DNA of 64,000 nucleotides from a virus (IMGVR_UViG_3300017747_005082:73618-137617), one strand, 5' to 3'; counted from the stretch's first letter, positions 31,598-56,931 are shown. Notes: generated by a model from the letters alone, not told the origin. Program-made: numbers and translations.

Positions 31598-32392
31598 TTA
31601 TTGACCTAAAATGATTGGTGTTTTACCATCAGTTATAATGACTTTATTGTTAGTATTTCTAATAGCCTCAATCCATTGTTGTTGAAGAATTTTATTATCT
31701 AAACCATCAGCTTTTATTCTATTAGTTGCAGCATCAATAACAGCTTTTTCTTTTAAATTTCTAGCCGTCTCTAATTGATTTTTAACTTTATTGGCTTCTT
31801 GGATAGCAACGTTTCTATCTTCAATAGCTTTTGTCATAGATGGAGGAGGGTTAAGACCTGATGTTAATGTTTCAAGATTAAAATACTTAGATGTAAATTC
31901 TGTTTTTAATCTTTCATTTACCTTAGTTTCATAAGATTCAACATTATTCATTAAAGAGTCTGCAGTAGCGTATCTTCTAGCTTCTTCTCGATAAGCATCT
32001 GTTACTCTTTTATTTAATACATTTAACTCTACTAAATCATAAAAAGTATCAGGAGATTGAACATCATAATTTTTATATTCTAATACAATATTAGGGCCTT
32101 TACCTCTTAATGCTCTATAAGTATAAGTAGGATCTACTGTAAATTTAGAACCATCTTTAGTAAGAACCTCTACCTTATTAGCATCTCCAGTTTGTTCCCA
32201 CATAGGAACTTGATACAACTCACTTCCAGGACCTAATGGACCTTGAGCTCCTGTTACAACAGCAAATGATTTAATACCATCCCTACCATAATCAGTCATT
32301 AATACTCCTTCGTAATTTGATTCAGGTCTGTTACAAGACACCATAAATAAGGCCATTCCAGCCAATAACATAACTTTTCTTAATTGTTTCAT
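31598..32392 (-). CDS. putative lipoprotein (264 aa), locally G+C-richer; possibly SPFH/band-7-like
   Basis: MKQLRKVMLLAGMALFMVSC lipobox; Ala/Arg/Glu-rich helical C-terminal half; hairpin 31565-31584 downstream. Confidence 0.35.
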   Translation of the reverse strand: MKQLRKVMLLAGMALFMVSCNRPESNYEGVLMTDYGRDGIKSFAVVTGAQGPLGPGSELYQVPMWEQTGDANKVEVLTKDGSKFTVDPTYTYRALRGKGPNIVLEYKNYDVQSPDTFYDLVELNVLNKRVTDAYREEARRYATADSLMNNVESYETKVNERLKTEFTSKYFNLETLTSGLNPPPSMTKAIEDRNVAIQEANKVKNQLETARNLKEKAVIDAATNRIKADGLDNKILQQQWIEAIRNTNNKVIITDGKTPIILGQ

Positions 32393-35668: not shown

Positions 35669-36070
35669 TTAATCAAACGTATTTGGGAATAGCTTTATTA
35701 TTACATCATAGAGCTCTTCAGGACTTTCAATAAAAATTTCTTCTAAATTTGGTCCTATCATAAAATTAGGATTTCCATCTTCACTAAACCTCTCATAGAA
35801 ATAAAATGAAATTAATCTTGAAACATCCTCACCCCAAGATAATAATATCATGTTATCAATTATATGATATAAAGGATCATTAAATTTAGATATATCTATT
35901 TGAAAATTAGTCTCTAATAATAAAGATTTATTTAATTCTTCATCATATTTTTTAATTATATCTAAAAATAAATTTCTTTTTTGGTTTTTTTGAGTAAGTC
36001 TTTTTCTTCTAATGATAGTATCCACTCCTAACATTTTATTAAATCCTTCTTGTAAATATTCTTTATTCAT
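35669..36070 (-). CDS. hypothetical protein; start probably the internal Met (MNKEYLQEG...)
   Basis: The longer track ORF overlaps the GIY-YIG gene; the internal Met removes most of the overlap. Confidence 0.4.
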   Translation of the reverse strand: MNKEYLQEGFNKMLGVDTIIRRKRLTQKNQKRNLFLDIIKKYDEELNKSLLLETNFQIDISKFNDPLYHIIDNMILLSWGEDVSRLISFYFYERFSEDGNPNFMIGPNLEEIFIESPEELYDVIIKLFPNTFD

Positions 36071-36752
36071 TTTTGTATTTCCATTTAAATTTACCACATT
36101 TATTAGTTTTTCCAGAACAACAGCTAGATATCCCACCTCCATTTAAATTTAATTTATTAGATGCTTCTTTTATACTATTCCATTCTTTTATAAATTTATT
36201 ACTAATATCATATTGTAGAACAGGTTTAATGGATTTATGGAAGGGAAAAGTATAATTTATAGGTAAAGGATTATTTTTATATCTCCAAATAAATCCATTA
36301 GATTTTTTAATTTTTCCAACCAAACAATTGCTTATAGAATTTTTATTAATTTTTAGAATTTTAGATGATTCAACAATACTATTCCATTCTTTAATAAAAT
36401 TTCCATTTAAATCATATTGTAATATTGATTTAGATATTTTATTAACTATTTTTTGTTTGGATATTTCATTATGGGTTATAACTCCACCACCTCCATTATT
36501 TTTATTTTGGATATCAAATCCCCATTGTCGAAATTGTTCTATCCAAAAAGTTTCTAAAGGTTCCCAATATAATTTAGATAATGAATTAATTTCATCAATA
36601 TAACCAAAATAAATATTTTTCCCAAATCTTTTTCTATGATTATATAATCTTTTTGTGGTTTTAGGATATTTTTCTTTTCCTATATATATTTTATTAGGAT
36701 CTTCATAGCAATTAGTAACAAGATATATTCTAGTTTTTTCATTACTATTCAT
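36063..36752 (-). CDS. GIY-YIG homing endonuclease, free-standing (229 aa)
   Basis: N-terminal RIYLVTN...KIYIGKEK...R..NHRKR (GIY...YIG...R...H); two C-terminal ~45-aa repeats (QYD.NG.FIKEWNSI.E(S/A)SK.L.(I/L)N...IS.C..GK.....F.W.YK) like the DNA-binding modules of Seg/I-TevI-type enzymes. Confidence 0.65.
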   Translation of the reverse strand: MNSNEKTRIYLVTNCYEDPNKIYIGKEKYPKTTKRLYNHRKRFGKNIYFGYIDEINSLSKLYWEPLETFWIEQFRQWGFDIQNKNNGGGGVITHNEISKQKIVNKISKSILQYDLNGNFIKEWNSIVESSKILKINKNSISNCLVGKIKKSNGFIWRYKNNPLPINYTFPFHKSIKPVLQYDISNKFIKEWNSIKEASNKLNLNGGGISSCCSGKTNKCGKFKWKYKNE

Positions 36753-37049
36753 TTATTCTTTAATTTTAGTGGCTAAATCTCTTAATAATACACAATTATC
36801 AAAATTTTCTTTTGAAAGATAATATTTTTCTAATGTATTAATTACCTGCTTATATTCAGATTTGGGAACTATTATTTGAAATTCATCAACAATACAAACA
36901 ACACATTCTTTTCTATTTTTTTCAACTGCTTCTTTTATTATAGGAACTATTCTATTAAAAACCCCTTCTTGAACTTGGGACTGATTTAATCCCACCAAAA
37001 TAGTATCTAAAGAATTATCCCTAAATGTTACCCTAGGTATTTTGTTCAT
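36753..37049 (-). CDS. hypothetical protein (98 aa)
   Basis: ORF track. Confidence 0.45.
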   Translation of the reverse strand: MNKIPRVTFRDNSLDTILVGLNQSQVQEGVFNRIVPIIKEAVEKNRKECVVCIVDEFQIIVPKSEYKQVINTLEKYYLSKENFDNCVLLRDLATKIKE

Positions 37050-37052
37050 AAA

Positions 37053-37424
37053 TTATTGTTTTAATACTAAATCTCTTATCATTGTAAAGACTGAATCTAA
37101 TGGAATCCAAAAATTCGCTGCAGATTTATCTGGAGCATCTACATCTCTATCTATTTCTAATTTAAATTTAGAAAATTTTGGGCCTAATGCTGTTGCTAAA
37201 GAATTTTGTAACGTATCTACTTCCTCTGGTGATAAGTTTTGAATCATATCTCCTTCGGGATTGGAAGGGAAAAATTTAATTTTAATTCCTTTTTTAGATG
37301 GATTTTTACCAACATCAACAGTTACTTTAAAATTTTCACCTCCTAAATTAGCAGTATAATTTAATTCACCATCTTCTTTTAATAAATCTTCACTAAGGAT
37401 ACTTTTTAAGGATATTTTTTTCAT
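37053..37424 (-). CDS. hypothetical protein (123 aa)
   Basis: ORF track. Confidence 0.45.
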   Translation of the reverse strand: MKKISLKSILSEDLLKEDGELNYTANLGGENFKVTVDVGKNPSKKGIKIKFFPSNPEGDMIQNLSPEEVDTLQNSLATALGPKFSKFKLEIDRDVDAPDKSAANFWIPLDSVFTMIRDLVLKQ

Positions 37425-37433: not shown

Positions 37434-38564
37434 TTATATAAATATTAATTCAGGATAATAATTTTCAATATTTATTACATTAATGGTAAAAATATCCATT
37501 TCATAATTCCCAGGTTCTTTAATATCTCCTAATATATTTTGTATATTTCTAATTATATGAAAATTATTATTATTTAATTGATTACCATCAAAATATATTA
37601 AAATATCATTATCCCTTTCTAATTCTGAAGATGATATTCTTCTTGACAAATTAAAAGATGTATTTTTTTGTTCCGCTTCAATATATTCTTGTATTATACT
37701 TTCTTTATCACATTCAAGATATATGTCAGATGCCCAAGGTTCCATATTTTTTAGTATATCAATATTACAGTTTTTAATTACAAATCCAATATCAAACAGA
37801 TTATTTGAATCATATGAACCCCATTTTCTAATATATGTTCTATTTGAATTTTCTTCTATTCTTTGAGTATTTTTTATTCCTTCTTCTGAAAAACGAGAGG
37901 TTTTAGATACAAAATGATAAACAATAGAATCTAATGAAGTAAGACATTTTAATCCTCTTCCTTTTAAACGTCTAATTAAATCATCATCTTCACAATAATA
38001 TGGATTGAATATATTATCAAAACCTCCCATATCCAAAAGAACTTGACGAGAAAGTGACATAAAAAATGTAATTCCATCTTGTGTAGTATTTTTCTTTGAT
38101 AATTTTTCATTTAAAGCAAATTCAACAAATTTATCTCTTTCAAAATTATTAAAATCACTACCAAAATCTCTAATTATTTTACCGGGCCTTTCATGTCCAG
38201 CAAAAATAGGGGGTTCTACTGTAGTATAAGAAATAACTCTATCTTTATGTAAATATTTTTCAAGATTTTCTAAAAATTGAGAAGATACTACCATATCATT
38301 ATGAGCAAATACTACAAAATCTTTAGTAGCAATTTCTATAGCTTTATTATAAGTATCGGAAAATGTTTTTTTATTATAATCAAAGAAAGCTTTTACATTT
38401 GGATCTGTCAATCTTAAATCACATAACCATCCATGGGTTCCATCAGTACTTCCATAAGAAACAAAAATTAACTCTTCTTCAGGATATATTTCCCTAAAAG
38501 TCTTATAAAAATTTTTAGAATATTCTAAATTATCTTTTAATCCTACTAATGTACTAATATTCAT
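37434..38564 (-). CDS. family-2-like glycosyltransferase (376 aa)
   Basis: FVSYGSTDGT matches the GT2 DDGSTD-type nucleotide-sugar motif; FAHNDM downstream. Confidence 0.5.
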   Translation of the reverse strand: MNISTLVGLKDNLEYSKNFYKTFREIYPEEELIFVSYGSTDGTHGWLCDLRLTDPNVKAFFDYNKKTFSDTYNKAIEIATKDFVVFAHNDMVVSSQFLENLEKYLHKDRVISYTTVEPPIFAGHERPGKIIRDFGSDFNNFERDKFVEFALNEKLSKKNTTQDGITFFMSLSRQVLLDMGGFDNIFNPYYCEDDDLIRRLKGRGLKCLTSLDSIVYHFVSKTSRFSEEGIKNTQRIEENSNRTYIRKWGSYDSNNLFDIGFVIKNCNIDILKNMEPWASDIYLECDKESIIQEYIEAEQKNTSFNLSRRISSSELERDNDILIYFDGNQLNNNNFHIIRNIQNILGDIKEPGNYEMDIFTINVINIENYYPELIFI

Positions 38565-38851
38565 TGTTTAAACGATAAGGTTTAATTATTGAAATAGGAG
38601 AATTTTTAGAATATTGAAATTCATCTAAGAGATAAAAATATTTCCCTATTATTTCTAAATCTTGAAAATCTTCAATAATTTCCCATTTATTATTAAATGT
38701 GGATAAAATTTCCCTATATTTGATATCTGAATCTAAATCTTTTAAATAAATTGTAGTATTTGTTAATTCTAGTACTTTTCCTTTGAAAACAGTAGGATAT
38801 GAAGTATGTTTTTGTTTAAAGATATATGTGCTGTTTTGTTTTAATTTCATA

Positions 38852-39331
38852 TTATCTAAGTTGGTTTATATCTATTCGTTTTATTGATTTACTTTTTTGT
38901 TTTGCATATTTAACACAATTAGCAGTACCTCCTGAAGTTCCATCCCATACAGCAATTAACAAATCACAATTGTCTACCATCCATTCATTTCTCTTTTGCA
39001 TACAAAATGGAGTATATTCAGTTTGAGTAACGTAATGTATATCAGTAAACTCAGAATGTAATATTTTGTTATATCTAATTTTAGATTTCTCAGGCCACAT
39101 TTTATCTTGATTAAAGCATGGTATAGCAGCTATTAATGGGATTTTATTTTCAATAGCTAATTCAGCCCATAATATATCAATTCCTAAAGCCATTCCACTA
39201 ATGAGAGCATTCGGATTAGTATAGTCAATATAATCTTGGAGTTGAGATTTAATTTTAATAATTAAAGGACTAATTAAATCATAATCATTCCCTAATTTAC
39301 TTGGTCTATGTCCAGTTATTGCTATTTTCAT
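38852..39331 (-). CDS. SLOG/YpsA(DUF1273)-like Rossmann-fold protein (159 aa)
   Basis: MKIAITGHRP...GMALGIDILWAE...LIAVWDGTSGGT pattern. Confidence 0.4.
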   Translation of the reverse strand: MKIAITGHRPSKLGNDYDLISPLIIKIKSQLQDYIDYTNPNALISGMALGIDILWAELAIENKIPLIAAIPCFNQDKMWPEKSKIRYNKILHSEFTDIHYVTQTEYTPFCMQKRNEWMVDNCDLLIAVWDGTSGGTANCVKYAKQKSKSIKRIDINQLR

Positions 39332-39633
39332 TTAATATGACTTTGAACTCCATTAATATCAGGTTTTCCCCATTTTCTTTTTCGATTAATTTCCATTTTC
39401 TCAGAAACTGCATTCGATATATCTTCAAAAGTCATACCATCAGAATGAGCTCCTCCAAATAATAAAATAAAACAATCAGCCCATTCTAATCTTTTATTTT
39501 TAGAACCTGTTTTAATATCATTAATTAATTCCTTTATTTCTTCATTTAAATGAGATAATTTAGGTAAAGGGTTTTGTTTACCAAATGTTTCTTCTTGCCA
39601 TTTAGTAACAGCTAAAAATTGATCTTTAGTCAT
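39328..39633 (-). CDS. MazG-like nucleotide pyrophosphohydrolase; start probably the internal Met (MTKDQF...)
   Basis: EEIKELINDIK...RLEWADCFILLFGGA...EKMEINRKRKW, an all-alpha MazG/dimeric-dUTPase-like pattern; the longer track ORF overlaps 39635..40399. Confidence 0.45.
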   Translation of the reverse strand: MTKDQFLAVTKWQEETFGKQNPLPKLSHLNEEIKELINDIKTGSKNKRLEWADCFILLFGGAHSDGMTFEDISNAVSEKMEINRKRKWGKPDINGVQSHIK

Positions 39634-39634
39634 A

Positions 39635-40399
39635 TTATCTACCTTTAAATTCTGGATATAATTCTTTACCTGAATCTGATTGCCAAAATTCTTTAGTTTT
39701 AATATCCATAATAGATACATAACCATGCCATCCACCACCTGTATCAAGATTCCATATATTAGCAGCATTCATAGGTTCATTTTTTTTCCAAAATTGAGTT
39801 GAAGTATGTCCTATAAATACTTCTTTAAAATCCCCTACCATTTTAAATTTAGGTCTCCAACCTGGAGTATATTCTGGTAAATCTAAATTAGTCATAGTAC
39901 CATAAGATAATGCTTGACTCCATAAATCTCTATCCCAATAAAATATAAATTCTTCCTGATCTTCTAATTTTTCATGTCTATTAAATCCACCATGTACAAA
40001 TAGATTATTTTCATCATCTATATAATATGGTAATTGGTTTTTGAAGAATTCAACATGAGTATTTGGAATATGTCCATATATTATTGTATTTTCACCTGGA
40101 TATTTCTCAAGATAAGATAATGCTGTTGCTTTTGCACCTTGAGACCATCCAGAACCGTGCCTTCCAGAACATAACCAATCATTAAACCATTCGTCATGGT
40201 TACCTTTAATAGGAATCAAATTTTTTATTTTAAGTAATTCTTCAATAACTTCAAATGATTGACTATGACCATCTACTACATCTCCTAATGAAATGAGAGT
40301 ATCATTTTTATAATCAAAATTACTTCTCTCTAAGGCTTGTATTAAACCTTTATAATTTCCGTGGATATCTCCTATTACTAATATTCTATTTGTTTTCAT
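39635..40399 (-). CDS. calcineurin-like metallophosphoesterase / PPP-family phosphatase (254 aa)
   Basis: VIGDIHGNY, GDVVDGH and GNHDE motifs. Confidence 0.7.
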   Translation of the reverse strand: MKTNRILVIGDIHGNYKGLIQALERSNFDYKNDTLISLGDVVDGHSQSFEVIEELLKIKNLIPIKGNHDEWFNDWLCSGRHGSGWSQGAKATALSYLEKYPGENTIIYGHIPNTHVEFFKNQLPYYIDDENNLFVHGGFNRHEKLEDQEEFIFYWDRDLWSQALSYGTMTNLDLPEYTPGWRPKFKMVGDFKEVFIGHTSTQFWKKNEPMNAANIWNLDTGGGWHGYVSIMDIKTKEFWQSDSGKELYPEFKGR

Positions 40400-40572
40400 T
40401 ATATAATCCTTTAATTAAATGAGTTAATTGATTAATATCTTCTATTATAGGAAGATCTTTCCCACAATATCTAAAGAAAATATAATCCTCGTAAATGGCA
40501 GCTTTTAGAGATTTAAATTCAAAAATATTCTTTTTAATTTCTATAAATCCTAATTCTTTTATTTTTTCTAAA

Positions 40573-41463
40573 TTACTTATTTGCATATAATATTTGTTTA
40601 TATAGTTCTAAATGTTGTTTAGCAACAACATTTCTTTTAAATCTTTCTATTTTTGGAGGATATTTTAATTGAACATCTAAAATATTTCCTTGATAATCAA
40701 CTTTATAGATATAACTAGGTATTCCACACATCCATCCCTCAATCGTAGTTCTTCCACCAATTCCTACGGTAAAATCTGCGTATTTAACGTGGATCTCTGT
40801 ACCATAACATGGATCTATAATTTCAATTAGTTCATTATTAAAATTACGTTTACTTCGAGATATAATAGTTAATCTGTGATTATTTTCAATACAATTTTGA
40901 ACGGCATGTTCAATCATATGGGAACGTAATGGATCATTTATCTCTCCAATTAAAATACCAGTTGTCTTTGCTCTTTTAGAAAATGATCTACCTAAATTAG
41001 GTTTAAATCTTTCTTCATTAATTGGATTATAAATTAAAGAAATATCTTTTGTTTTTATTCTATATTGATTTTTTAAACATCTGTAAATATCAGGTTGGAC
41101 TGCTATATAATGTTTTATAGAATCATGTTTTACTGCATCTTCACTCCTTAAAGCTGAATGGATAATAGAAATTTTAGGAATTGATGGATATTTTTGACAT
41201 AAAATAGAATTTGGTAGTGGTTGAGATGCAATAATTAAATCAAAAGAGATGTTATAATTTGATATTAATTCTTCTAATCCAATACATTTTATTCCTTGGT
41301 TTAATAATTTATCAAATAAATGAAAATCTAAATTTGGTTTGGTATAAGTAGCAAAATATATATCTAATTCCTTAAATTTAGATAAACCCATTAATAGCTC
41401 ATAGTGATATAATTCACTACCACCATAGGCGTTCATATTTTGACAACTAATTAAAATTTTCAT
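40573..41463 (-). CDS. glycosyltransferase-like protein (296 aa)
   Basis: Rossmann-like MKILISCQNMNAYGGSE N-terminus typical of GT-B enzymes; weak. Confidence 0.35.
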   Translation of the reverse strand: MKILISCQNMNAYGGSELYHYELLMGLSKFKELDIYFATYTKPNLDFHLFDKLLNQGIKCIGLEELISNYNISFDLIIASQPLPNSILCQKYPSIPKISIIHSALRSEDAVKHDSIKHYIAVQPDIYRCLKNQYRIKTKDISLIYNPINEERFKPNLGRSFSKRAKTTGILIGEINDPLRSHMIEHAVQNCIENNHRLTIISRSKRNFNNELIEIIDPCYGTEIHVKYADFTVGIGGRTTIEGWMCGIPSYIYKVDYQGNILDVQLKYPPKIERFKRNVVAKQHLELYKQILYANK

Positions 41464-42009
41464 ATTTTATTAACTAATTCTATAATTTCTCTTAACTGAT
41501 TGTAAATCTCTTGTTCTGTAATTAATTCACGAGGGCTATCAGGATTACTTAATTTATATTCTAATGAATGAGATAATAATGCTAATTTTAAATTAATAGG
41601 TCTAAATGAACTTATATCTATTATTCTTAAATTTTTAGTTTCCATAATTAAAATTTTTCTTTAATAAAGTCTTCTATTTTATTCTCTAACCAATCTTGAT
41701 GTTCTTGATCTCCATGTTTTATTTCTTGGAATAATTCTCTTAAATAACTTTTACACAATCTTTCAAAAGGGATAGGATATTTTCTATATTTTAAATGTTG
41801 AAGATATTTATATGTTTCTGTTAAACTACAACTAAATTCAGTATTATTTGTTTTATTTTCTATTATCAATCTAGGTACATATCCTTGAGTAGTTATCTTA
41901 GTTATAGGCATATTAATTATAAGAATATCTTCTATCGAGATATTTTTCCAAAAATCAAACTTTGTTCTTCCTTTATATTTTTCTTCAATTATAATATAAA
42001 GAGCTAATT

Positions 42010-42615
42010 TTAATCCTTCCATAATTGAAATATTATTCCTTGTGAATATTTTCGATATACTCTATATCCTTCATCCTCCATTAATCTAACTACATCTTTC
42101 CATCCATATTCTAATTTATGAGTTGAAATATCACCTTCCCAAGTTTGCCCATCCTCTGTAATAGGACATTCAAAATAAACCCAATTAACTCCACTACAAT
42201 ATTTTACCAATTGTTCAAAATGTTGATTTGATAAATGCTCAATAAAATGAGTAGCAAAAATTATATCAGCTTCTTCTGTTCTTTTATCTTCAAACCAATT
42301 AAATTTAGAAGGAAAAATATAACTAAATTTGGGATTATTACAGTTTATTTTTTTAATAGCGGCTTTACATATTTCAATACCTTTCCATTGTTTTATATCT
42401 TTAAAAATAGATAAAGCTTGTTGAGCCATATCTCCTTTCCAACAACCAAATTCTAATATTTTATCATTTTTAGCTATTGTCAATAATTCATTTACAATAG
42501 GAAATGTATAGTGAGCTTGATTAGGATACCTGGATTCTAAATCATTATGATATTCTACTTGTTCTTCTAAAGTCATAGTCTCATAAGACTTTCTCCAATT
42601 ATCAAATTCATTCAT
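42010..42615 (-). CDS. class I SAM-dependent methyltransferase (201 aa)
   Basis: ILEFGCWKGDMA resembles methyltransferase motif I (E/DxGxGxG). Confidence 0.5.
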   Translation of the reverse strand: MNEFDNWRKSYETMTLEEQVEYHNDLESRYPNQAHYTFPIVNELLTIAKNDKILEFGCWKGDMAQQALSIFKDIKQWKGIEICKAAIKKINCNNPKFSYIFPSKFNWFEDKRTEEADIIFATHFIEHLSNQHFEQLVKYCSGVNWVYFECPITEDGQTWEGDISTHKLEYGWKDVVRLMEDEGYRVYRKYSQGIIFQLWKD

Positions 42616-43283
42616 TATTTAAGATTTTTATGTATATTTATAGTTTCTTCGTATTCTTCAATTAAATCATCCATACCCCAAACGGTATTATATCCATTTG
42701 CTCTAGTTAATCCAATAGTATTTTCTTTTAAATGTTTAACAGGATTTCCAACATATATTTGTCCTGGTAATATTTTAGATTTCTTAGTAACTACTCCTCC
42801 CATTCCTATCATAGAAAATCCTCCTAAAATAGAAAATTGATGACATATAGAACCTAATCCCATATTTACTCCATCTAATATTTCTGAATGTCCTCCAACT
42901 AATACATTACAAGATAATGTAATTTCATTATTTAAAATACAATCATGTCCTAGATGAGAACCTCTTAACATTATATTATTGTTGTATATTTTTGTATGTC
43001 TTGATGAACCTGAATTAATAGTAACATATTCTCTAAAAACATTATTACTTCCAATATCAACTGAATATTTAGATTCTGTGTTATGGAATAATCCCTTATA
43101 TTCAGGGTTAGTACCAATAGAACAGTATGCTTCAAATCTGTTGTTATCTTCCATTCCTACTCCTTTTTTTATAATACAAAAAGGGCCAATATAATTATTT
43201 TTACCCATTATTACACCTTCTTCTACAATAGCAGTATGGTGGATAAAGTTACTTTTATCATGAATTGTTTTAAATAATTTCAT
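42615..43283 (-). CDS. hexapeptide-repeat (left-handed beta-helix) acyl/acetyltransferase (222 aa)
   Basis: Repeated [LIV]-G-x-x-x-x hexads (IGSNNVF, LGHDCILNNEITL, VLVGGHSEILDGVNMGLGS, IGMGGVV). Confidence 0.6.
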   Translation of the reverse strand: MKLFKTIHDKSNFIHHTAIVEEGVIMGKNNYIGPFCIIKKGVGMEDNNRFEAYCSIGTNPEYKGLFHNTESKYSVDIGSNNVFREYVTINSGSSRHTKIYNNNIMLRGSHLGHDCILNNEITLSCNVLVGGHSEILDGVNMGLGSICHQFSILGGFSMIGMGGVVTKKSKILPGQIYVGNPVKHLKENTIGLTRANGYNTVWGMDDLIEEYEETINIHKNLK

Positions 43284-43928
43284 TTATAATTTAGAATATA
43301 ATTCATTTTGTTTTTCCTGTTTATCTATTTTTTTAATATGAAGTAATTCATATTCACTCTCTGTAGGTAATTCAGTTCTTAAAGTAAATCCTAATATAGT
43401 TTCATGAACTTTACCTTCCCAATTTAATTTAGATATATTTTTACATATACGATATTGAAAATCAGGATAATTTATTCGATTTTTAGAATCTATTCTCCAT
43501 CCCCATTTTTGAATATGTTCAGGGGTTATTCCTTTAACAAAATTAGATCTAGCAATTCCAAAAACATCAACATTTGGATTTAATTCTAATATTAATGGTA
43601 AATCTGCTATTAATTGTGGATTTGGATTTTCATCAGCATCTATAAAAAATATGTAATCTTTACATAAAGGATGGTTTTTTAATTTATTTTTCCATTCAGC
43701 AAAATTACCATTAAAATTATCAGATATTAATTTAATATATCTTGCTCTATGTAAATCAAATAAAAAATCCCAAAATTCACAAGATTCAGGACACTTATTA
43801 TTATCTACTAAAACAATAATATTATCTTCTTCTCTTTTATTAATTTGAAGGGTTTTAAAAAGTAATTTAAATTCCTCAAACTCATCGGCAACTGTTATTG
43901 CATATGTTATTCTCATATTAATAATCAA
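43284..43928 (-). CDS. GT-A-fold glycosyltransferase with DxD motif (214 aa)
   Basis: IIVLVDNN ... YIFFIDADE (DxD). Confidence 0.45.
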   Translation of the reverse strand: MIINMRITYAITVADEFEEFKLLFKTLQINKREEDNIIVLVDNNKCPESCEFWDFLFDLHRARYIKLISDNFNGNFAEWKNKLKNHPLCKDYIFFIDADENPNPQLIADLPLILELNPNVDVFGIARSNFVKGITPEHIQKWGWRIDSKNRINYPDFQYRICKNISKLNWEGKVHETILGFTLRTELPTESEYELLHIKKIDKQEKQNELYSKL

Positions 43929-44802
43929 TATGAATTAAAAAGGTAGTATTAATTAATTCAGGATATGTTGTTCTTAACCAATCTTGCAGTTCTCCTTCTT
44001 CTTCTTCCAATAAATTGTATTCAGTATAGACATCACAACCTAATTCATCTAACCAACCTTTATCAATTTCTTCAGGTATATCACAATAGGATACTACCTT
44101 CATATTTAATATTTTTAACATATAACTTTTTTATTTAAATATACAAACTTAATTTATTAAATCCAAATAATCTAAAGAATCTATAAATCCTTCTTTACCA
44201 AACTTAGTTAATGTTGATGGATCATTTTTATATTTAATATATTCTCCTGTTGTTGGATTTTTAAATTTTTCTTTTTCTTCTTCCCTAACTTTAATGGATT
44301 TAATAGCTGCCCATTCCCAATCATCTCTACTAGTACCTAATACAAAGATAATACCTACCCCTTCTATATTTATTGTTTGTGGATACCAAACTCTTTTATC
44401 ACTATCTACTTGTTTAATATCTTTATACAACTCAGGTAAAGTTTCTTCAAAAGTTTCAAAATCAAATTCATCTAATTTCATTAAATCATTTGTTTCAAAA
44501 CCAGTAACTAAACATTTATATGATTTTAATGTTTCGTTAATAGGAGTTATATATGCGCTTTCTTCTAATCCACATAATGGAGAAAATCCTAATTCATCTT
44601 TCATTTTATTTTTTTATTAAAGGTAATATATTAATTTCTTTATATTCAAAAACTACAACTTCATAATCATCCAAACATATTATATGTTTATTATTTTTAA
44701 TAGCTTCTGAGGGGAATACATGCCATGTATATTTATTCGAATACCCAAGTGTAATAAATTCTTGGGTTTTCTTATTTCTAATTTTATATATTTTATTTCT
44801 CA

Positions 44803-46080
44803 TTATACTTTTTTTAATGGAGGTAAAACAACTGAATATGGTAATTTTATATTTGAATCAATTATTGTTTGGATTTTTTCTTTCATTTTATCAAATGAAA
44901 AATTAGTTTTACAATAATATCCTAATCTTAAACCTAAATCTTTATATTTGGGATAATTCTCAAAATAATCTCTTAAAGTAGCACCCGCTATTCCATAATC
45001 AGGGGTAAACCATTTACTTCCTTCAATTAACATATCTTTTATTTGTGCAGATGGGTGAATTGGAGTTAAATTTCCAGGTAATAAAGAAGTAAATTCAGGG
45101 TTACAAAAATCAATATGTCCACTCCAATTAGATACTATCAATGGTTTTTTAGATTGAGTAAATTCAAGTAATGGTTTTCCAAATCCTTCACCTTTAGTTA
45201 AAGATACCATTGCTTTTATTTTTGGATGATTATATAATTCATTCATTTCAATATCTTTTATTTCTCCATGAAGTAAATATATATTAGGTAAATTTGCTGA
45301 GTTTACAGATTCTCTAATTTGCTGAATTTTATCTAAAATAAATTCTCTATCTGTAATAGAACAAGGACCTGACATAGTTTTTAATACTAGTGCAGGTTTG
45401 GTTTTTTTATTTTTAAATGTCTCAAAAAATAATTTAACAAGTCCTCCAACGTTTTTTCTGTCCTCTCCTATATCTCCTTGTAACCAATGACCTGCAAATA
45501 GAAAACAGAAATTTTCTTCAATAGAATCTAATTCTGTTTTAATGGAGCTGTTTTCTAGTTTTGGTAAATATTTATAAACATTTGTAATAAAACCTTCATG
45601 AATTACTTCAATTGGTTTTTCTACTTTTATTCTACCTACAATTTGTTGGGTTTGATCATTTTTTTTATCAAATTGAGAATTTAAAAATACAGACTTAGAA
45701 TGTTCTGATGGAACAATAGTTAAATCCATTGTATTTATAGCCTCAATCCATTGAGGTGCACATAAATCTGTTTCTATTCCAGCAGTAAATAAACAATTCC
45801 ATTTTCCTATAGGTTTTGCTTCAACAGGAATTGTAAACCATAACATAATATCAGGTTGGTATGTTAAATTTTCTAATAGAATATAATCATTTAAGAAACT
45901 CCATTCAGAATTGTTATCTATAAATCCATTTGGAGTATTACCCCAACCACAAGATAATATTTTAATATCCCATTTATCTCCATATAATTCAATTAAGGCT
46001 TTTATTCTTTCTCTTGATGCTCCTCCATAACCAGAGAAAGTATCAATAGGAGCGTACATAACGCATTTTGGTTTATTCAT
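44803..46080 (-). CDS. GT-B (GT4/GT1-type) glycosyltransferase (425 aa)
   Basis: TKGEGFGKPLLEFTQSKKPLIVSNWSGHIDF matches the E-x7-E/GxG donor-binding motif of GT4 enzymes. Confidence 0.6.
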   Translation of the reverse strand: MNKPKCVMYAPIDTFSGYGGASRERIKALIELYGDKWDIKILSCGWGNTPNGFIDNNSEWSFLNDYILLENLTYQPDIMLWFTIPVEAKPIGKWNCLFTAGIETDLCAPQWIEAINTMDLTIVPSEHSKSVFLNSQFDKKNDQTQQIVGRIKVEKPIEVIHEGFITNVYKYLPKLENSSIKTELDSIEENFCFLFAGHWLQGDIGEDRKNVGGLVKLFFETFKNKKTKPALVLKTMSGPCSITDREFILDKIQQIRESVNSANLPNIYLLHGEIKDIEMNELYNHPKIKAMVSLTKGEGFGKPLLEFTQSKKPLIVSNWSGHIDFCNPEFTSLLPGNLTPIHPSAQIKDMLIEGSKWFTPDYGIAGATLRDYFENYPKYKDLGLRLGYYCKTNFSFDKMKEKIQTIIDSNIKLPYSVVLPPLKKV

Positions 46081-46253
46081 TATTTCTAAATTGGTCAGTT
46101 AAAGTTTTTATTTCTTCTCTTAATTTGTTTCCTTCTTTTATAACATCTTCAGAACATGACCATCCATGAATATATAATAAAGGAGAGGTTTTTGTTATTT
46201 GATTTTCTAAAAATTCTATATATTCCTTTTGTTTTAAATATAATTCTTTCATA

Positions 46254-47678
46254 CTAATAAGTTAATGGATGTAATATTTTTTTCTCAGATCTATTTACTG
46301 ACTTAACTAATTCAAATGATTTTCTTGGTTGAAATTTAGTTAATACTTTGTCTACTCCACTTATAATATTTTTACACATATTATTAGATGACATCATAGA
46401 TTCTTCAGACATTACCCATTCTCTACCACTTAGTCCAAATTTTTGTCTTTGTTCTGATTCTAAATTATATACTTCAGTAATGGTTTTTGCTAAGTCTCTA
46501 AAATCTAATTTTGTATCCCAAATATATGGAGTTTGAGGAGATCCAATTAATGATATATTATTTGGAAAAACAGGTTTTGCCCACTCTCCACATTTTTTAT
46601 ATGTACCAAAATGGTTTGAAGGGAATTTTTCATTGAACTTAATCCATTCTCCATTTTCATCTTCAAATCTCATTTGATCTTGCATACCCCCAGTAACATT
46701 GGCTATAATCATAGTTCCAGCCATCATAGATTCAGTAAGTGATAATCCCCAACCTTCATTAGAGGAAGGTAAAATTGTTACATCAGCAAGATTATACAAT
46801 TCATTCATTTCAGGTGTACCCATTTTTTTACTAGTAAAATATACATTCGATTTTTTACCAAATAACATTTCTCTAACAGCACCTAAATCAGTTCCATTTC
46901 CATCTACAACATCTGTATGTAATAATAATGCGGTGTCTTTTTGTTGTTCAGGAGTTAATTTTTCTTGAAATAATTGCCAAGCAACTAACAAATCAGGTAC
47001 ACTTTTCCTCCTTATATTTCTTGAATTAAAAAATGAAACAAATTTAGGATTAGAACCTCCTAAATATTTTTGTTTTAATTCAGTGATTTTAGAACTTTCT
47101 AATGGATAAAAATCATTTTCATTAATACCATGAGGTACATATTCAATTATTTTATCTTTAGCTAATTCTCCTAATACTAATTTATTAATATTTTCTGTTT
47201 GTCTTGAAATAGCTAATAAACCATCACAAGATTCATAATAAGATTTATTATAAAGTGGAGCAGGATATTCATCCCATATATTATAATAAATTATAGGACA
47301 TTGTTTTCTTACCTCATTTTCAATTTGAAATAACCAAGTAAAATACCTTGGATCAGTAAATATTATTATTGCATCAGGTTTTTCTGTTTTTAACAAATAT
47401 CTCATAATTCTAGCATCTCCATATCCATTAAAAGGATATAAAATTACTGAAGAATCTTCATTTCCTGTTTGTTCATCAATAGTTTTGGATACATCTATTC
47501 TTTGTCCTTGATGAGGATGATTTACACCTGAAGCTAAATTAACCCAATTAAAATAATGGCTTGTACCTTTTACAATTTCTCTGGCCATTGTAGATACTCC
47601 TGAAAATAAGAATATATCATCAGATAATAGTAGTATTTTTTTACGTTCTTCTTTTGGCTTATAACCTTCTTTATGCAT
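46254..47678 (-). CDS. GT-B (GT4/GT1-type) glycosyltransferase (474 aa)
   Basis: LPSSNEGWGLSLTESMMAGTMIIANVTGG conserved donor-binding motif. Confidence 0.6.
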   Translation of the reverse strand: MHKEGYKPKEERKKILLLSDDIFLFSGVSTMAREIVKGTSHYFNWVNLASGVNHPHQGQRIDVSKTIDEQTGNEDSSVILYPFNGYGDARIMRYLLKTEKPDAIIIFTDPRYFTWLFQIENEVRKQCPIIYYNIWDEYPAPLYNKSYYESCDGLLAISRQTENINKLVLGELAKDKIIEYVPHGINENDFYPLESSKITELKQKYLGGSNPKFVSFFNSRNIRRKSVPDLLVAWQLFQEKLTPEQQKDTALLLHTDVVDGNGTDLGAVREMLFGKKSNVYFTSKKMGTPEMNELYNLADVTILPSSNEGWGLSLTESMMAGTMIIANVTGGMQDQMRFEDENGEWIKFNEKFPSNHFGTYKKCGEWAKPVFPNNISLIGSPQTPYIWDTKLDFRDLAKTITEVYNLESEQRQKFGLSGREWVMSEESMMSSNNMCKNIISGVDKVLTKFQPRKSFELVKSVNRSEKKILHPLTY

Positions 47679-47974
47679 ATACTTAATTTAAACTTTTTAT
47701 GATTTAATATATAAAACCTTTATTACAAAACCAAATAATTTTATTCTTTTTCTTTAAATTCTAAATTTGTTGTATTATGAAGTTTACTTTGAAATTCTTC
47801 ATCAGAAAGATATAAAAATAAGGCTCTATCTACTAATTTCTGTAATGAGAATTTTGATTTTATACAAGCTATTTTGAATTTTTCAAATACTTCAGTATCT
47901 ACTTTGACACTTGTAAGACTTTGGTTGATTTTTTTCATGATATTTTATTTTGTATATATAAATATATACAATTT

Positions 47975-48949
47975 TTAAAATATCTCAAATGGGTTTCTCC
48001 ATTTTGCAGGTGTTTTACCTTTTGGACATAATTTATCATCTTCTTTATAAGGACAAAACTGACAACTAGAAGGACTAATATGTTTTTTAAATGGATCCGT
48101 TTTTATTTTTCCAAATTGATCAAAGGCAGAATGAGCAAAATTTTCTAATAATGTAAAAGCTTTCTTAAGTTTTACTTTACCCGAAGCTGGAATAAATTCT
48201 TGTATTCTTTTTTCTGGGAAATCACCATCTTCCTTTATTTTTCTTTTTAATATCATAAATTTGATACTAATATTGTCAATAGGAAAGTTAAATTGTTCTG
48301 AAAATAATTTTTTATAAAGAACTAATTGTGATAATTTATTTTCATCTTTTTTGGATTTATCATACCAAGCTCTTGTGGATGATTTTAAATCTATAATTTC
48401 TACTGTATTAGTAGGTTCATGATATAAAACTAAGTCTAATGCTCCCTTATATAAAACATTAGGAAGAATATCATAAGATACAGGGATTTCACAACCAAGT
48501 AAAAACCAACCTTTTTTGGAAAAATATTCACCTCTTTTTCTTTTAAAATATCTTATTATTTCTAATCCATCAAGACAATATTCATCTAATTCTGCTGGGT
48601 TAGAAAAATGGATTTTGTTATTTTTATTATATTGGACTACATATTCTTGCTTTAATTTTAATTTAAATAAACTTTCTAAGTCTATTCTATCAGCTTCTGC
48701 TCCACTTTTTTCATAAAAAGTAGTTAAATAATGTTGTATTACTTCATGTAACACAATCCCAAATAATAAGTTTATATTATAATTAGGTATTTTATGGCCA
48801 TCTCGATAAGTTAATCCCCATCGAAACTCACAACCATTAAATATTGTCATTTGAGTATGACTTATAACTTTTTGTTTGGAAAAATCAATAAATGGTGGTT
48901 TGTAGGCTTTTACTTGTTTTACTAGGGCTGGTATTTTTTTCTTGGCCAT
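47975..48949 (-). CDS. PD-(D/E)xK nuclease, Cas4/RecB-like, with Cys cluster (324 aa)
   Basis: D...EIIDLKSS (D-x(n)-E-x-K) core; one N-terminal and three C-terminal Cys (CQFCPYKEDDKLC), as in Cas4/AddB Fe-S nucleases. Confidence 0.5.
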   Translation of the reverse strand: MAKKKIPALVKQVKAYKPPFIDFSKQKVISHTQMTIFNGCEFRWGLTYRDGHKIPNYNINLLFGIVLHEVIQHYLTTFYEKSGAEADRIDLESLFKLKLKQEYVVQYNKNNKIHFSNPAELDEYCLDGLEIIRYFKRKRGEYFSKKGWFLLGCEIPVSYDILPNVLYKGALDLVLYHEPTNTVEIIDLKSSTRAWYDKSKKDENKLSQLVLYKKLFSEQFNFPIDNISIKFMILKRKIKEDGDFPEKRIQEFIPASGKVKLKKAFTLLENFAHSAFDQFGKIKTDPFKKHISPSSCQFCPYKEDDKLCPKGKTPAKWRNPFEIF

Positions 48950-52323: not shown

Positions 52324-53949
52324 TTAATATAATGAAGGTTGTTCTTTTTGTTCTTCTCTTTTTTCAATAACTAAATTATTTGTTGTTAAAATAGTTCCAG
52401 CTACTGAAGAAGCATTTAGTAATGCATATCTAGTTACTTTTACAGGATCTAAAATACCTTTAGTTCTCATATTAACAATAGATTCAGAAACTAAATCATA
52501 TCCATTCCAAATATCAGGTTTTTTAGTTAAATCAGATATTAATTTTTTAATATCTTCACTATCATAACCAGCATTTTCAAGAATTCTAGTAAATGGAGCA
52601 GAACAAGCATCATATACAATTTGCTGTCCTAATTTAATATCTTTATCTATTTCATTAAAAATGATTCCTTCTCTAGCATATAATAAAGCAGAACCTCCTC
52701 CAGGTAATACTCCTTCTTCTATGGCAGCACGAGTAGCATGTAATGCATCATCTACCCTATCTTTTTTCTCTTCAATTTCTACTTCAGAATTACCCCCAAT
52801 AGAAACTACAGCAACTCCTCCTACCATTCTTCCTAAACGTTCTTGAAGTTTTTCTTTCTCGAATGGAGATGATGCTTTATCAATTTGAGTTTTAATTTCC
52901 TCAGTTCTCTTTTCTATTTCTGCTGGTTCACATTCTCCATCTACTATTGTAGTATTTTCTTTAGTAATAGTTACAGTACGAGCATTACCTAAATATTTAT
53001 TCCATTCATTTGGATTTATTTTATCCAATTTCATTCCTTTTTCAGTAGATATAACTTGTCCTCCTGTTATAATTGCTAAATCTTCTAACATAGATAATCT
53101 TCTATCTCCAAAATCAGGAGCTTTGACAGCAACTGAATCAACAACTCCTCTAACTTTATTTACAATTAAAGTTGATAAAGCTTCTCCGTCAATATCCTCA
53201 GCAATAACTAATAATGATCTTTGTTCAATATTAGCTTTATTCATAACTCCAACTAAATCTTGGGCTGATGTTATTCTTCCACTATATATAAGAATTAATG
53301 GTTTTTCTAAAGTAGCTTGCATTGTATTGTTATCAGTAACAAAATATGGAGATTTATAACCTCTGTCAAACTGCATTCCTTCTACAACATCTAAACTGGT
53401 TTCTCCAAATTTAGATTTTTCAACCGAAATTATACCTTCTCTACCTACTTTATCTATAGCTGTAGAAATTAATGTTCCGATTTCAGGATCATTATTACCA
53501 GATATAGTTGCTACTTCTTGGATTTGGGAATTTTCTGTTATATCTGCTTTATTTTCTTTCAGTTTTTCAATAACTTGTTTAACAGCTAAATCAATACCTT
53601 TCTTAACAGAAACAGAATTAGATCCTTTTTCCATAACTTTGAAACCTTCTTTTATAATACTAGTAGCTAGTAATGTTGATGTCGTAGTACCATCACCTGC
53701 TTTATTATTAGTATCTTCCGATACTTTTTTAACAAGTTGTGCACCCATATCTTCAATTTGATCTTCCAATTCAATAAAACCTTTCGCTACAGAAACACCA
53801 TCCTTAGTAGTTTTAATTTTACCATATTGGTCTTTAAGCAGAACTGTTCTTCCATAGGGACCTAATGTATCAGATACTGCATTATTTAATTTCTCTATTC
53901 CTCTTAATAAACCGGCTTGTAATTTTTCTCCGTTTTCTGTTTGTGTCAT
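52324..53949 (-). CDS. groEL: chaperonin GroEL / Cpn60 (541 aa)
   Basis: Collinear GroEL blocks: TKDGVSVAK, AGDGTTTSTLLA, VVEGMQFDRGY.SPYF, AVKAPDFGDRR, GGVAVVSIGG, DALHATRAAIEEGV.PGGG, GILDPVKVTR. Confidence 0.9.
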   Translation of the reverse strand: MTQTENGEKLQAGLLRGIEKLNNAVSDTLGPYGRTVLLKDQYGKIKTTKDGVSVAKGFIELEDQIEDMGAQLVKKVSEDTNNKAGDGTTTSTLLATSIIKEGFKVMEKGSNSVSVKKGIDLAVKQVIEKLKENKADITENSQIQEVATISGNNDPEIGTLISTAIDKVGREGIISVEKSKFGETSLDVVEGMQFDRGYKSPYFVTDNNTMQATLEKPLILIYSGRITSAQDLVGVMNKANIEQRSLLVIAEDIDGEALSTLIVNKVRGVVDSVAVKAPDFGDRRLSMLEDLAIITGGQVISTEKGMKLDKINPNEWNKYLGNARTVTITKENTTIVDGECEPAEIEKRTEEIKTQIDKASSPFEKEKLQERLGRMVGGVAVVSIGGNSEVEIEEKKDRVDDALHATRAAIEEGVLPGGGSALLYAREGIIFNEIDKDIKLGQQIVYDACSAPFTRILENAGYDSEDIKKLISDLTKKPDIWNGYDLVSESIVNMRTKGILDPVKVTRYALLNASSVAGTILTTNNLVIEKREEQKEQPSLY

Positions 53950-53964
53950 ATATCTTTTTAATTA

Positions 53965-54258
53965 TTATTTAATAGCAGCTAATAAATCAGAAATAGAAGC
54001 TACAAAATAGTCTACTCTATCTAATGTCACTTTTTGTGCTCCCATTGATGGGAAAACTACAATATCTCCTTCATTAAACATGCAAGGAACTATAGTTCCT
54101 GTATTATAATTGTATATTGGAGCTAATTTAATAATCTCAGCTTGAGAAGCTCTTGTATTTTCTATATCAGGAATAATTATATTTCCCTGAAATTGTTCTC
54201 CTTCTTCAATAGGTTTTAAAATAGCTTGTCCATAATTAGGGACTAATTGTTTACTCAT
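53965..54258 (-). CDS. groES: co-chaperonin GroES/Cpn10-like (97 aa)
   Basis: GroES length and pattern (L.P..D..I.K...E......G.I.......), C-terminal EGDIVVF...VTLD....F; directly downstream of... upstream of groEL in transcript order. Confidence 0.65.
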   Translation of the reverse strand: MSKQLVPNYGQAILKPIEEGEQFQGNIIIPDIENTRASQAEIIKLAPIYNYNTGTIVPCMFNEGDIVVFPSMGAQKVTLDRVDYFVASISDLLAAIK

Positions 54259-55617: not shown

Positions 55618-56523
55618 TTAAGAGAAATTAAAATAATCAGTTATATAAGAATTAAATACAACAGAACCATATTTTAAATCTTCATAAATTTTTTCTATCT
55701 TTTTTTGGAGTACTGTTTCAAATAATTTATTTTTATCAATATATTCTTCTACTAAATCTACTATTTCTGGGGGATCATCATATCCTTTAAATGCTATCAT
55801 ATCTAACATATATGGATTTTTCTTTAAATAAGCTAAATATATTTTATCTCCTAATTGGATTTGGGAATATTGTTTATCCCAACCTTTAAATTTTAATATA
55901 TCATTATATTTAATGGAACCTTTTGTATTGGGTGGTGCTTTCTTTTGTAAAGTTGAAAACATTTTTCCTGGGGGTGGTGGAGAAGCAATATATTCTTGTA
56001 TTTTTTTAATACCTGTAGGTTTACATAATTTCCTCCAATTTACTTCATTTATTGAATCTCTAAAATCAATAATAAATTTATCTACTTCTGTTTTAGAAGT
56101 AGCAAATAATATTTTTTTAATTAATTCTTCTCCAAAACCTCTAAAATGTGGAGGGAAATTAGATTTCATAATATCTAATCCCATTACTACAAGTTTTTCT
56201 ATGGGAATACCTTCTTTATCAACTTGCCATTGAGCATATCTTCTTTTTCCTGACCAATAAGCAGATTGAAGAATAAATTCAGGTTTTAAATCGAAATAAT
56301 GTTCATCACAATTTAAAATATTTTTAGCAAGTATAGTTTGTTGTTTATTTAATACTGCCCCTACATCTTTTTGTAATGTTTTAACCTTAGGTAATACTTC
56401 TTCTTTATCAGTTAAATCTAAAGTAGGATAAAGTTTAGTTAATACAGGTTCAAAACAAATAAAACATGAATCTGTATCACTAGCAGCAATATGTTTATTT
56501 ATTTTATGGACATCAAAATTCAT
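55618..56523 (-). CDS. family-B DNA polymerase, C-terminal fragment (palm motif C + thumb, 301 aa)
   Basis: HIAASDTDSCFICF contains motif C (DTDS); lies downstream of the N-terminal fragment. Confidence 0.75.
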   Translation of the reverse strand: MNFDVHKINKHIAASDTDSCFICFEPVLTKLYPTLDLTDKEEVLPKVKTLQKDVGAVLNKQQTILAKNILNCDEHYFDLKPEFILQSAYWSGKRRYAQWQVDKEGIPIEKLVVMGLDIMKSNFPPHFRGFGEELIKKILFATSKTEVDKFIIDFRDSINEVNWRKLCKPTGIKKIQEYIASPPPPGKMFSTLQKKAPPNTKGSIKYNDILKFKGWDKQYSQIQLGDKIYLAYLKKNPYMLDMIAFKGYDDPPEIVDLVEEYIDKNKLFETVLQKKIEKIYEDLKYGSVVFNSYITDYFNFS

Positions 56524-56923: not shown

Positions 56924-56931
56924 ATTAATTG

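Follow-up and report, generated by a model that had tools for sequence, protein, structure and literature searches.

A putative glycan-assembly operon with a conserved core and a variable island in an uncultured T4-like aquatic phage

Clusters of glycosyltransferase genes are already known as a kind in phages, and several described systems offer points of comparison for the cluster analysed here, which lies at positions 37,434 to 47,678 of a 64,000-nucleotide stretch of viral DNA (IMGVR_UViG_3300017747_005082:73618-137617; the whole stretch is hereafter called the window), headed by a small gene (s65) and a palindromic element immediately upstream. In the current study the region is read, with high confidence, as a glycan-assembly operon rather than a DNA-modification pathway. 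Its layout, consisting of a putative regulator with its element, a three-transferase core, an orphan-fold protein and a recombining island, is distinctive and represents a very large and uncharacterised family, and no description of this layout was found in a literature search.

The work of Freeman et al. 2023 (Cell Host Microbe; cited through PMC12619734) is said to have described a mycobacteriophage glycosyltransferase operon, located outside the structural module, that modifies capsid and tail-tube subunits. The locus of the current study is similarly a small phage glycosyltransferase operon outside the structural module, with a methyltransferase gene, as mycobacteriophage glycosylation operons also have, but the phage lineage and the hosts are different, a search with its first transferase (GT4a) matched no mycobacteriophage at E<1e-5, and we know of no description of a conserved core with a hypervariable island in the mycobacteriophage system. 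The transferases of chloroviruses are soluble, early-expressed enzymes that glycosylate the capsid protein in the cytoplasm (PMC5408694), and the capsid glycans consist of a conserved five-sugar core with strain-specific decoration (PMC7826918). This machinery (PBCV-1 A064R, A075L and A111/114R; NY-2A B736L/A546L) is comparable in its soluble virus-encoded transferases and its tailoring by methyltransferases, and its conserved core with strain decoration mirrors the gene arrangement of conserved core and variable island found here. Chloroviruses are, however, eukaryotic giant viruses with scattered genes, whereas this locus forms a single probable operon; orthology with it is not detectable at the sequence level (17% identity in the structural alignment), and the biochemical function of B736L is not established.

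Clade-specific glycosylation gene clusters also occur in the Megavirinae, where nucleotide-sugar synthesis genes (for aminotransferase, dehydratase and acetyltransferase) are grouped with transferases in sets that vary between syntenic viruses and decorate the particle (PMC10117803), but these are giant viruses of amoebae with fibril proteins as targets and no sequence relationship to the locus, and they differ from the window phage in that the latter lacks nucleotide-sugar synthesis genes. The hypervariable islands of pelagimyophages and cyanomyophages likewise belong to T4-like aquatic phages, are rich in transferases and deoxysugar enzymes, and have a function that is only proposed (PMC7029224). 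Those islands are dominated by GT8 enzymes and lie in the tail-fibre ‘host recognition cluster’ (PMC7029224), while this locus lies in the replication module and, unlike them, is built on three core transferases in invariant order, with an orphan protein and an element conserved upstream. The DNA glucosyltransferases of T-even phages (alpha-GT, GT72; beta-GT, GT63) resemble the enzymes described here in having a GT-B fold and being early genes near replication and recombination genes. They require 5-hydroxymethylcytosine, whereas no hydroxymethylase was found among window open reading frames (ORFs) of at least 150 amino acids (aa), and the DNA of the closest cultured relative of this phage, Flavobacterium phage vB_FspM_immuto (hereafter immuto), carries no sugar (PMC10516641).

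We propose that s65, a ribbon-helix-helix (RHH)-like protein by prediction, and the conserved palindromic element would control the operon from its head, that the transferases GT4a, GT4b and GT-A together with the protein h151 would attach an inner saccharide, conserved in the clade, to an acceptor that all of these phages share, and that a strain-specific island (an LpxA-like O-acyl/acetyltransferase, a methyltransferase, a probable GT-B enzyme and a closing GT2 enzyme) would extend and decorate this saccharide. Host nucleotide sugars would serve as donors, since this phage encodes no nucleotide-sugar synthesis enzyme. The most likely acceptor would be a phage protein, probably one on the virion surface, which would give the particle a strain-specific glycan coat.

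Conserved architecture of the locus

The source of the window is a large uncultured aquatic phage that is T4-like and of virulent type. Relatives of GT4a were found on at least 600 contigs in a scan of IMG/VR, and in at least 8000 protein clusters in a protein database, with contigs of 165–185 kb. The locus comparison covered 81 loci (L001–L081; 1.1 Mb), with the addition of L085, a 175-kb contig whose GT4a is 68% identical to that of the window. Gene order is invariant across the 81 loci, running from a PD-(D/E)xK nuclease gene (76 of them) through s65 (all 81), GT4a (79), GT4b (69) and h151 (60) to GT-A (52), which always directly follows h151. A hypervariable island of 4–8 kb comes after this core and is often closed by a GT2 gene of the 376-aa type and two conserved small genes. 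The nuclease gene, a conserved flank upstream of the transferase genes, probably serves replication or recombination and not glycan synthesis.

A preliminary description of the window had proposed a probable operon of ten named ORFs, all of which are present on the minus strand at the coordinates it gave. The run is upheld as a co-oriented sugar-modification cluster in a virulent-type T4-like phage: the genes are very tightly packed, with gaps of at most 62 nt and many overlaps, the lone 173-nt gap containing a 59-aa ORF, and it is this packing that makes an operon likely. Sigma-70-like matches (122 found, 120.5 expected) and copies of the T4 late-promoter motif TATAAATA (44 found, 41 expected) occur at chance level in DNA of 25% G+C, and scans for both, as well as for terminators, are therefore uninformative on the limits of transcription units and on timing. 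The scarcity of promoter motifs within the run that the preliminary description had noted accordingly speaks neither for nor against an operon.

At the head of the operon, the window copy of the upstream element is a 22-nt palindrome whose 12-nt core, TATATTTATATA, is unique in the 64 kb. In 61 of the 81 loci the 80 nt preceding s65 contain the core TATATTTATA, approximately 31 nt before the start codon; the 1.1 Mb of related loci contain 89 occurrences, mostly those 61 sites, against a background of 0.0065 per 80 nt. The element probably serves the operon as operator and/or promoter, as predicted from its sequence and position. The family alignment of s65 displays a beta-strand/helix/helix pattern as in CopG/Arc repressors, while the protein has no Pfam match and its profile returned nothing below E=0.8 against the PDB; from this pattern, with which the conserved palindrome upstream also fits, s65 is a putative RHH (CopG/Arc-like) DNA-binding regulator that would have its own operator.

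The preliminary description had recognised two large GT4 enzymes and a GT-A enzyme with a DxD motif, and all three are borne out. GT4a and GT4b are paralogues that fall in the same BLAST cluster and each carry an EX7E motif, and GT4a has the two-Rossmann GT-B fold of CAZy family GT4. In a structural search the top match of GT4a was, by a narrow lead, the chlorovirus GT4 enzyme B736L; sucrose-phosphate synthase, the phosphatidylinositol mannosyltransferase PimA and BshA are close structural neighbours, and the T4 DNA alpha-GT (1y6f) ranked only 42nd. GT-A has a DAD motif and 1365 homologues, most of which carry PF00535; its ORF runs from 43284 to 43928 (214 aa), with the start probably at 43916 (210 aa). 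The remaining core protein, h151, has a very confident predicted structure, yet no match in the PDB or BFVD, and is in this sense an orphan fold. Most of its orthologues possess an N-terminal CxxC...CxxC zinc ribbon, the four cysteines of which are mostly lost in the window copy. We infer that h151 might assist the core transferases, either as an adaptor or by setting their specificity.

Among cultured phages the closest relative, immuto (160-kb genome), has the same gene order, with identities of 56% for GT4a, 48% for GT4b, 46% for GT-A, 34% for h151 and 30% for the closing GT2, and a larger island with extra aminotransferase, epimerase and acetyltransferase genes in between. Microcystis phage Mel-JY01 has the same module following its polymerase and clamp-loader genes, and Rhodothermus phage RM378 has the GT4 pair alone, without tailoring genes. 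In Mel-JY01 the GT4a orthologue (L091, 8998-10489) is annotated as two coding sequences, suggesting a frameshift or pseudogene, and h151 is lacking. The 10-kb cluster itself gave zero megablast matches against 50,697 phage records, that is, no near-identical GenBank phage, while JGI and Logan metagenome contigs, the longest of 180,524 bp, encode proteins identical to those of the window.

Sucrose-phosphate synthase, PimA and BshA act on small molecules or lipids, and this, together with the GT4 pair that RM378 carries without tailoring genes, would suit a cytoplasmic acceptor of another type. The operon would then make a glycolipid, a storage oligosaccharide, a glycoside resembling a compatible solute or some other glycoconjugate, whether free or bound to lipid, or else it would glycosylate a host protein for takeover. 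We consider such an acceptor improbable, as neither the extreme turnover of the island between strains nor the use of five to eight serial transferases would be accounted for if the product were a metabolite.

The variable island and an inserted gene trio

The islands that follow the core contain 32 distinct gene sets among 38 loci, and even pairs of loci with GT4a proteins 94–97.5% identical (L075/L080 and L016/L017, for example) have zero island families in common. Relatives carry NAD epimerase/dehydratase, DegT aminotransferase, RmlC, sugar C-methyltransferase and HAD-nucleotidyltransferase families, as well as GT10-like, GT11-like and GT2 transferases and DUF3431.

In the window the island begins with the protein that the preliminary description had called a hexapeptide acyltransferase, which is confirmed as an LpxA-like left-handed beta-helix protein of 222 aa. 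It scores 122.5 bits against NCBIfam LpxA (cut-off 226) and matches NeuD/PglB/VioB at E=4e-19; the match to LpxA stops near residue 196, leaving the C-terminal helical domain missing, and, on a reading of the sequence, it lines up with LpxA over the beta-helix and at the histidines of HDC, GGH and CHQF. We predict an enzyme of the sugar-nucleotide O-acyl/acetyltransferase type. A true LpxA (acyl-ACP:UDP-GlcNAc 3-O-acyltransferase) was rejected as an identity because the protein falls below the equivalog cut-off and is without the C-terminal domain. Orthologues are present only in L003, L004 and L085 among the related loci, and tblastn with the sequence of PDB 8e62, the best match of the protein, found no close phage relative.

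Two island assignments of the preliminary description were retained in part. The S-adenosylmethionine (SAM)-dependent methyltransferase has its motif I while its Pfam match remains below the cut-off; it is probably a sugar O-methyltransferase, as judged from its sequence, and is an island-specific tailoring gene, being missing from L003 and L085, with analogous methyltransferases at the same position in immuto and Mel-JY01. The GT-B-like protein of 296 aa has a weak match to the GT4 N-domain, but this too is below the cut-off and its family profile found no match in the PDB; an hhalign comparison with GT4a gave a co-linear alignment at a probability of 0.4%. Orthologues at 40–65% identity occupy the same position in L002, L003, L081 and L085, and a GT-B-like fold is plausible. 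The closing GT2 of 376 aa, whose designation in the preliminary description is backed by PF00535, carries just ND, a variant, in place of the DxD motif and gave nothing significant in a PDB sequence search; with orthologues in immuto, L003 (53%) and L085, it is always the last enzyme gene of the island. No equivalog-level NCBIfam match was obtained for any protein, and none of the small ORFs of the cluster has a Pfam family.

Between the 296-aa protein and the closing GT2 lie genes for a metallophosphatase, a MazG-like pyrophosphohydrolase and a SLOG/YpsA protein, which the preliminary description had identified correctly, as seen from their Pfam matches (Table 1), and had placed in the sugar pathway. 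The latter placement is contradicted: neither these three nor the adjoining 66-aa ORF have a homologue in any of the 80 related IMG/VR loci, and the islands of L003 and L085 carry the acyltransferase, the 296-aa protein and the 376-aa GT2 in the order of the window without them. On account of this absence, which extends to orthologous islands, the trio is treated, with the 66-aa ORF (38852..40586 in all), as an unrelated insertion into the glycan island, and the trio may represent a nucleotide-signal or nucleotide-pool module, perhaps for counter-defence.

The content of the islands bears on the main rival to a phage-protein acceptor, namely remodelling of the host envelope. Soluble transferases would here work from the cytoplasmic side of the host membrane, modifying O-antigen, capsule or core units while these are still lipid-linked, and host flippases and ligases would export the altered glycan to the cell surface, resulting in a block of superinfection by competing phages or in progeny that do not re-adsorb to the infected cell. 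RmlC, DegT, epimerase/dehydratase and GT11/GT10-like proteins are typical O-antigen enzymes, the LpxA-like enzyme resembles the first enzyme of lipid A synthesis, near-identical phages differ in their islands as expected under competition between phages, and this is the standard reading of glycosyltransferase-rich hypervariable islands in pelagimyophages and cyanomyophages (PMC7029224). That reading is, however, a proposal only (PMC7029224), and an experimental demonstration is lacking for any lytic T4-like phage. Moreover, neither the cluster nor any related sugar-gene island encodes a priming phosphoglycosyltransferase, flippase, polymerase, ligase or Gtr-type membrane protein. No protein of the window cluster has more than one hydrophobic segment, and among 1158 ORFs of at least 100 aa in related loci only seven have at least three, most of them holin-like or other proteins upstream of the glycan locus and none similar to a flippase, polymerase or priming transferase. 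The sole link to a Gtr-type serotype-conversion module, which would comprise the flippase GtrA, the bactoprenol glucosyltransferase GtrB and the membrane transferase GtrC, is a marginal match of the 376-aa GT2 to phrog_841 (E=0.0045), and the cluster does not otherwise correspond to such a module. Since the core transferases are orthologous across host phyla whose surface glycans differ, a host-specific core acceptor is also unlikely, and overall we judge host-envelope remodelling to be unlikely, if a serious contender. A self-contained surface-polysaccharide pathway (Wzx/Wzy- or ABC-dependent) was excluded, given that no priming, export, polymerase or ligase protein is encoded.

Table 1. Positions of the features of the glycan locus, followed by those of other features of the window
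Feature	Position	Strand	Evidence and remarks
Near-palindromic element TTGTATATATTTATATATACAA, predicted cis element	47950..47971	minus	10-bp arms, 2-nt spacer; ~12 nt upstream of s65 start codon
s65, 65-aa protein heading the operon	47741..47938	minus	median identity of homologues 57%
GT4a, retaining GT-B glycosyltransferase, core	46254..47678	minus	Glycos_transf_1 53.4 bits (cut-off 26.4); EX7E = EGWGLSLTE
59-aa ORF between GT4a and GT4b	46073..46252	minus	called as gene on identical JGI and Logan contigs
GT4b, GT4a paralogue, core	44803..46080	minus	PF00534 E=3.8e-5 (23.7 bits, just under cut-off); phrog_2170 E=1.7e-15; EX7E = EGFGKPLLE
65-aa basic ORF	44606..44803	minus	no Pfam match; called as gene on identical contigs
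h151, core	44149..44604	minus	~150 aa
67-aa very acidic ORF (pI 4.05)	43918..44121	minus	no Pfam match; called as gene on identical contigs
GT-A/GT2 transferase, last core gene	43284..43916	minus	phrog_37334 E=3.6e-10; no Pfam match of its own
LpxA-like sugar O-acyl/acetyltransferase (predicted), first island gene	42615..43283	minus	PDB 8e62 E=3e-34; E. coli LpxA ~1e-20
SAM-dependent methyltransferase, island	42010..42615	minus	PF13489 E=2.6e-5 (below cut-off); motif I ILEFGCWKG; weak TIGR03587 match (pseudaminic-acid-associated methylase)
Two small ORFs (124 aa; 61 aa)	41648-42022; 41460-41645	minus	no Pfam match; no homologue in related loci
Probable GT-B glycosyltransferase, 296 aa, basic, island	40573..41463	minus	PF13439 E=1.7e-4 (below cut-off)
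66-aa ORF, start of insertion	40386-40586	minus	
Calcineurin-like, NinI/ApaH-like metallophosphatase	39635-40399	minus	PF00149 E=1e-16; NinI-like phrog_246 E=1e-45
MazG-like dATP/dGTP pyrophosphohydrolase	39328-39633	minus	PF04447 E=7e-13; ORF to 39768, start probably ATG at 39633 (101 aa)
YpsA/SLOG protein	38852-39331	minus	PF06908 E=1e-13
98-aa ORF	38554..38850	minus	homologue in L003 (57%); no Pfam match
Closing GT2 glycosyltransferase, 376 aa	37434..38564	minus	PF00535 E=3.8e-10, 40.4 bits (cut-off 23.3)
h123 and h98, conserved downstream flank genes	36753..37424	minus	homologues after closing GT2 in immuto, L003, L009, L025, L056, L081
PD-(D/E)xK (RecB-family) exonuclease	47975..48949	minus	phrog_69 E=9e-17; PF12705 on L085 orthologue
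NUMOD1 homing endonuclease	36063-36752		just downstream of cluster
GroEL (541 aa) and GroES (97 aa)	52324-54258		kept in immuto and most related loci
DNA polymerase in two pieces	57592-59445 and 55618-56523 (region 55618-59445)	minus	
HAD_SAK_2 and dual-specificity phosphatase genes, adjacent	59578-60563		domains of ‘Swiss Army Knife’ RNA-repair proteins
PRA-PH/MazG-like hydrolase	61349-61825		61% identical to and syntenic with immuto gp208
PhyH-type 2-oxoglutarate (2OG)/Fe(II) dioxygenase	within 61349-62700		adjoins PRA-PH hydrolase
GmrSD_N/DUF262 stand-alone domain protein	15391-15954		
Glucosaminidase-domain protein, probable endolysin	26745-27278		
SPFH/Band 7 protein	31598-32392		

DNA modification and the acceptor of the glycan

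The preliminary description had put first the hypermodification of the phage’s own DNA, with the transferases building a sugar or oligosaccharide on a modified base and MazG and the phosphatase shaping nucleotide pools. This is contradicted by immuto, which has the same core genes and a larger island: nucleoside analysis of its DNA by liquid chromatography with ultraviolet and mass-spectrometric detection found canonical dA, dC and dT, and dG fully replaced by non-glycosylated fdPreQ1 (324 Da) (PMC10516641). Immuto encodes FolE, QueD, QueE, QueC, QueF, DpdA and a formyltransferase. The ThyA of immuto matches true thymidylate synthases at E=6e-72 and is one itself, and no hydroxymethylase is annotated in its 160-kb genome. 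In the window, neither a hydroxymethylase nor a thymidylate-synthase-like gene was found among the ORFs of at least 150 aa.

Immediately past position 64000, as seen on a contig that overlaps the end of the window (L087, 1-1091, corresponding to approximately 63972-65062 in window numbering), are a homologue of QueE, with 283 aa and 51% identity to the immuto protein, and the end of one of FolE (62%), and because of these the phage probably carries 7-deazaguanine DNA, as immuto does with fdPreQ1. The DNA modification of the window phage is therefore most likely a separate 7-deazaguanine system encoded just upstream, as predicted from these genes. Immuto gp208, the counterpart of the PRA-PH hydrolase of the window, sits between FolE and DpdA, and the adjoining PhyH-type dioxygenase could add another tailoring step to the deazaguanine pathway. 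Of the modification/anti-restriction theme that had been suggested, the PhyH, DUF262/GmrSD_N and PD-(D/E)xK genes are indeed present, but the theme itself is better explained by QueE/FolE and 7-deazaguanine. A glycan on the deazaguanine base was rejected, as the modified base of immuto is plain fdPreQ1.

What speaks for a DNA acceptor is that glycosylation of phage DNA is well known, that the cluster lies among replication genes and beside a nuclease, that a GmrSD_N/DUF262 gene is present in the window, and that Yersinia phage YerA41, which has several genes with glycosyltransferase motifs, bears on thymidine an apparently oligosaccharide substituent of approximately 1 kDa that is uncharacterised (PMC9023294). 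Because YerA41 offers this one oligosaccharide-like precedent on phage DNA, DNA hypermodification is kept under consideration, and we regard it as highly improbable, in view of the sugar-free DNA and true thymidylate synthase of immuto, the lack of a hydroxymethylase in both phages within the scope given above, the flanking QueE and FolE homologues, the low structural rank of T4 DNA alpha-GT, and the absence of MazG, phosphatase and SLOG from all related loci.

Glycosylation of virion proteins, which the preliminary description had offered as its second option, is retained as the leading reading, and the acceptor would on this reading be a phage protein glycosylated in the cytoplasm; we put this at slightly under an even chance. 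It is favoured because the core transferases are orthologous across phages whose hosts are Bacteroidota and Cyanobacteria, with the GT4 pair shared by a Rhodothermus phage as well, and a core common to phages of different host phyla argues for a phage-borne or universal acceptor over a host-specific surface glycan. Precedent also argues for it: soluble virus-encoded transferases with methyl and acetyl tailoring, of the type encoded here, glycosylate chlorovirus capsids with a conserved core and variable decoration, mimivirus fibrils and mycobacteriophage capsids and tail tubes are further instances, and the top structural match of GT4a is, though narrowly, a chlorovirus enzyme.

Several observations weigh against a virion acceptor. 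The window holds no virion protein of this phage, so that the acceptor is entirely deduced; the literature search turned up neither proteomic nor glycan data on the clade; and the operon is located among replication rather than structural genes. The island enzymes belong to the same families as bacterial O-antigen builders, and the LpxA-like enzyme could point to lipid-linked chemistry. Hypervariability is readily explained by competition between phages at the host surface, while for waterborne virions no selective reason for it is established. The RHH-type s65 and the adaptor role of h151 are, in addition, putative parts of the model.

On the phage-protein reading, a very abundant clade of T4-like water phages with genomes of approximately 165–185 kb might coat its particles with a serotype-like, rapidly exchanging glycan, produced by a three-transferase core with an orphan-fold zinc-ribbon protein and diversified by a recombining island, all switched on by an RHH regulator with its conserved operator. 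We advance this wider proposal tentatively and with some doubt.

Neighbouring genes and implications

The window has a G+C content of 25%, below that of all 80 related loci L002–L081 (26–41%, median 29.5%), and every gene of at least 120 aa is carried on the minus strand. T4-like replication genes include a split DNA polymerase, a gp44-type clamp loader and a DNA ligase, and GroEL and GroES are also encoded. Between the two DNA polymerase pieces are a 129-aa ORF and an HNH endonuclease gene (56932-57588), the latter being 44% identical to an HNH gene sited elsewhere in the immuto genome. Homing-endonuclease genes also cluster around the glycan locus, with an HNH-type gene between GT4a and GT4b in several relatives (L005, L009 and L016). 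In L085 a gene of the GmrSD_N/DUF262 family (5969-6529) is located between two clamp-loader subunit genes.

When 185,579 genomes of bacteria and archaea were scanned, the matches were all contigs of metagenome-assembled genomes that resemble mis-binned phage (one of 184.7 kb), and no cellular homologue context was obtained. Mis-binned relatives are held by assembled genomes of Bacteroidota (Algoriphagus and an unclassified Bacteroidetes bacterium), a weak hint on the host.

Phage-encoded clusters of glycosyltransferases are a common sight in aquatic viromes, where the labels ‘LPS (lipopolysaccharide) genes’ or ‘DNA modification’ are routinely given to them without any test. The locus described here makes the acceptor question tractable, as it has a fixed anatomy of putative regulator and operator, three core transferases, orphan protein and replaceable island, and as this architecture is found in thousands of environmental phage genomes with one cultured member, immuto, whose DNA is already known to be sugar-free. 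Either answer, be it a virion coat or conversion of the host surface, would show what a large block of viral ‘auxiliary’ genes does and would also account for an island that changes faster than any other part of the genome. If the reading of a virion coat is true, tailed phages of Gram-negative aquatic bacteria would here have their first described ‘O-antigen-like’ system of variable surface glycans.

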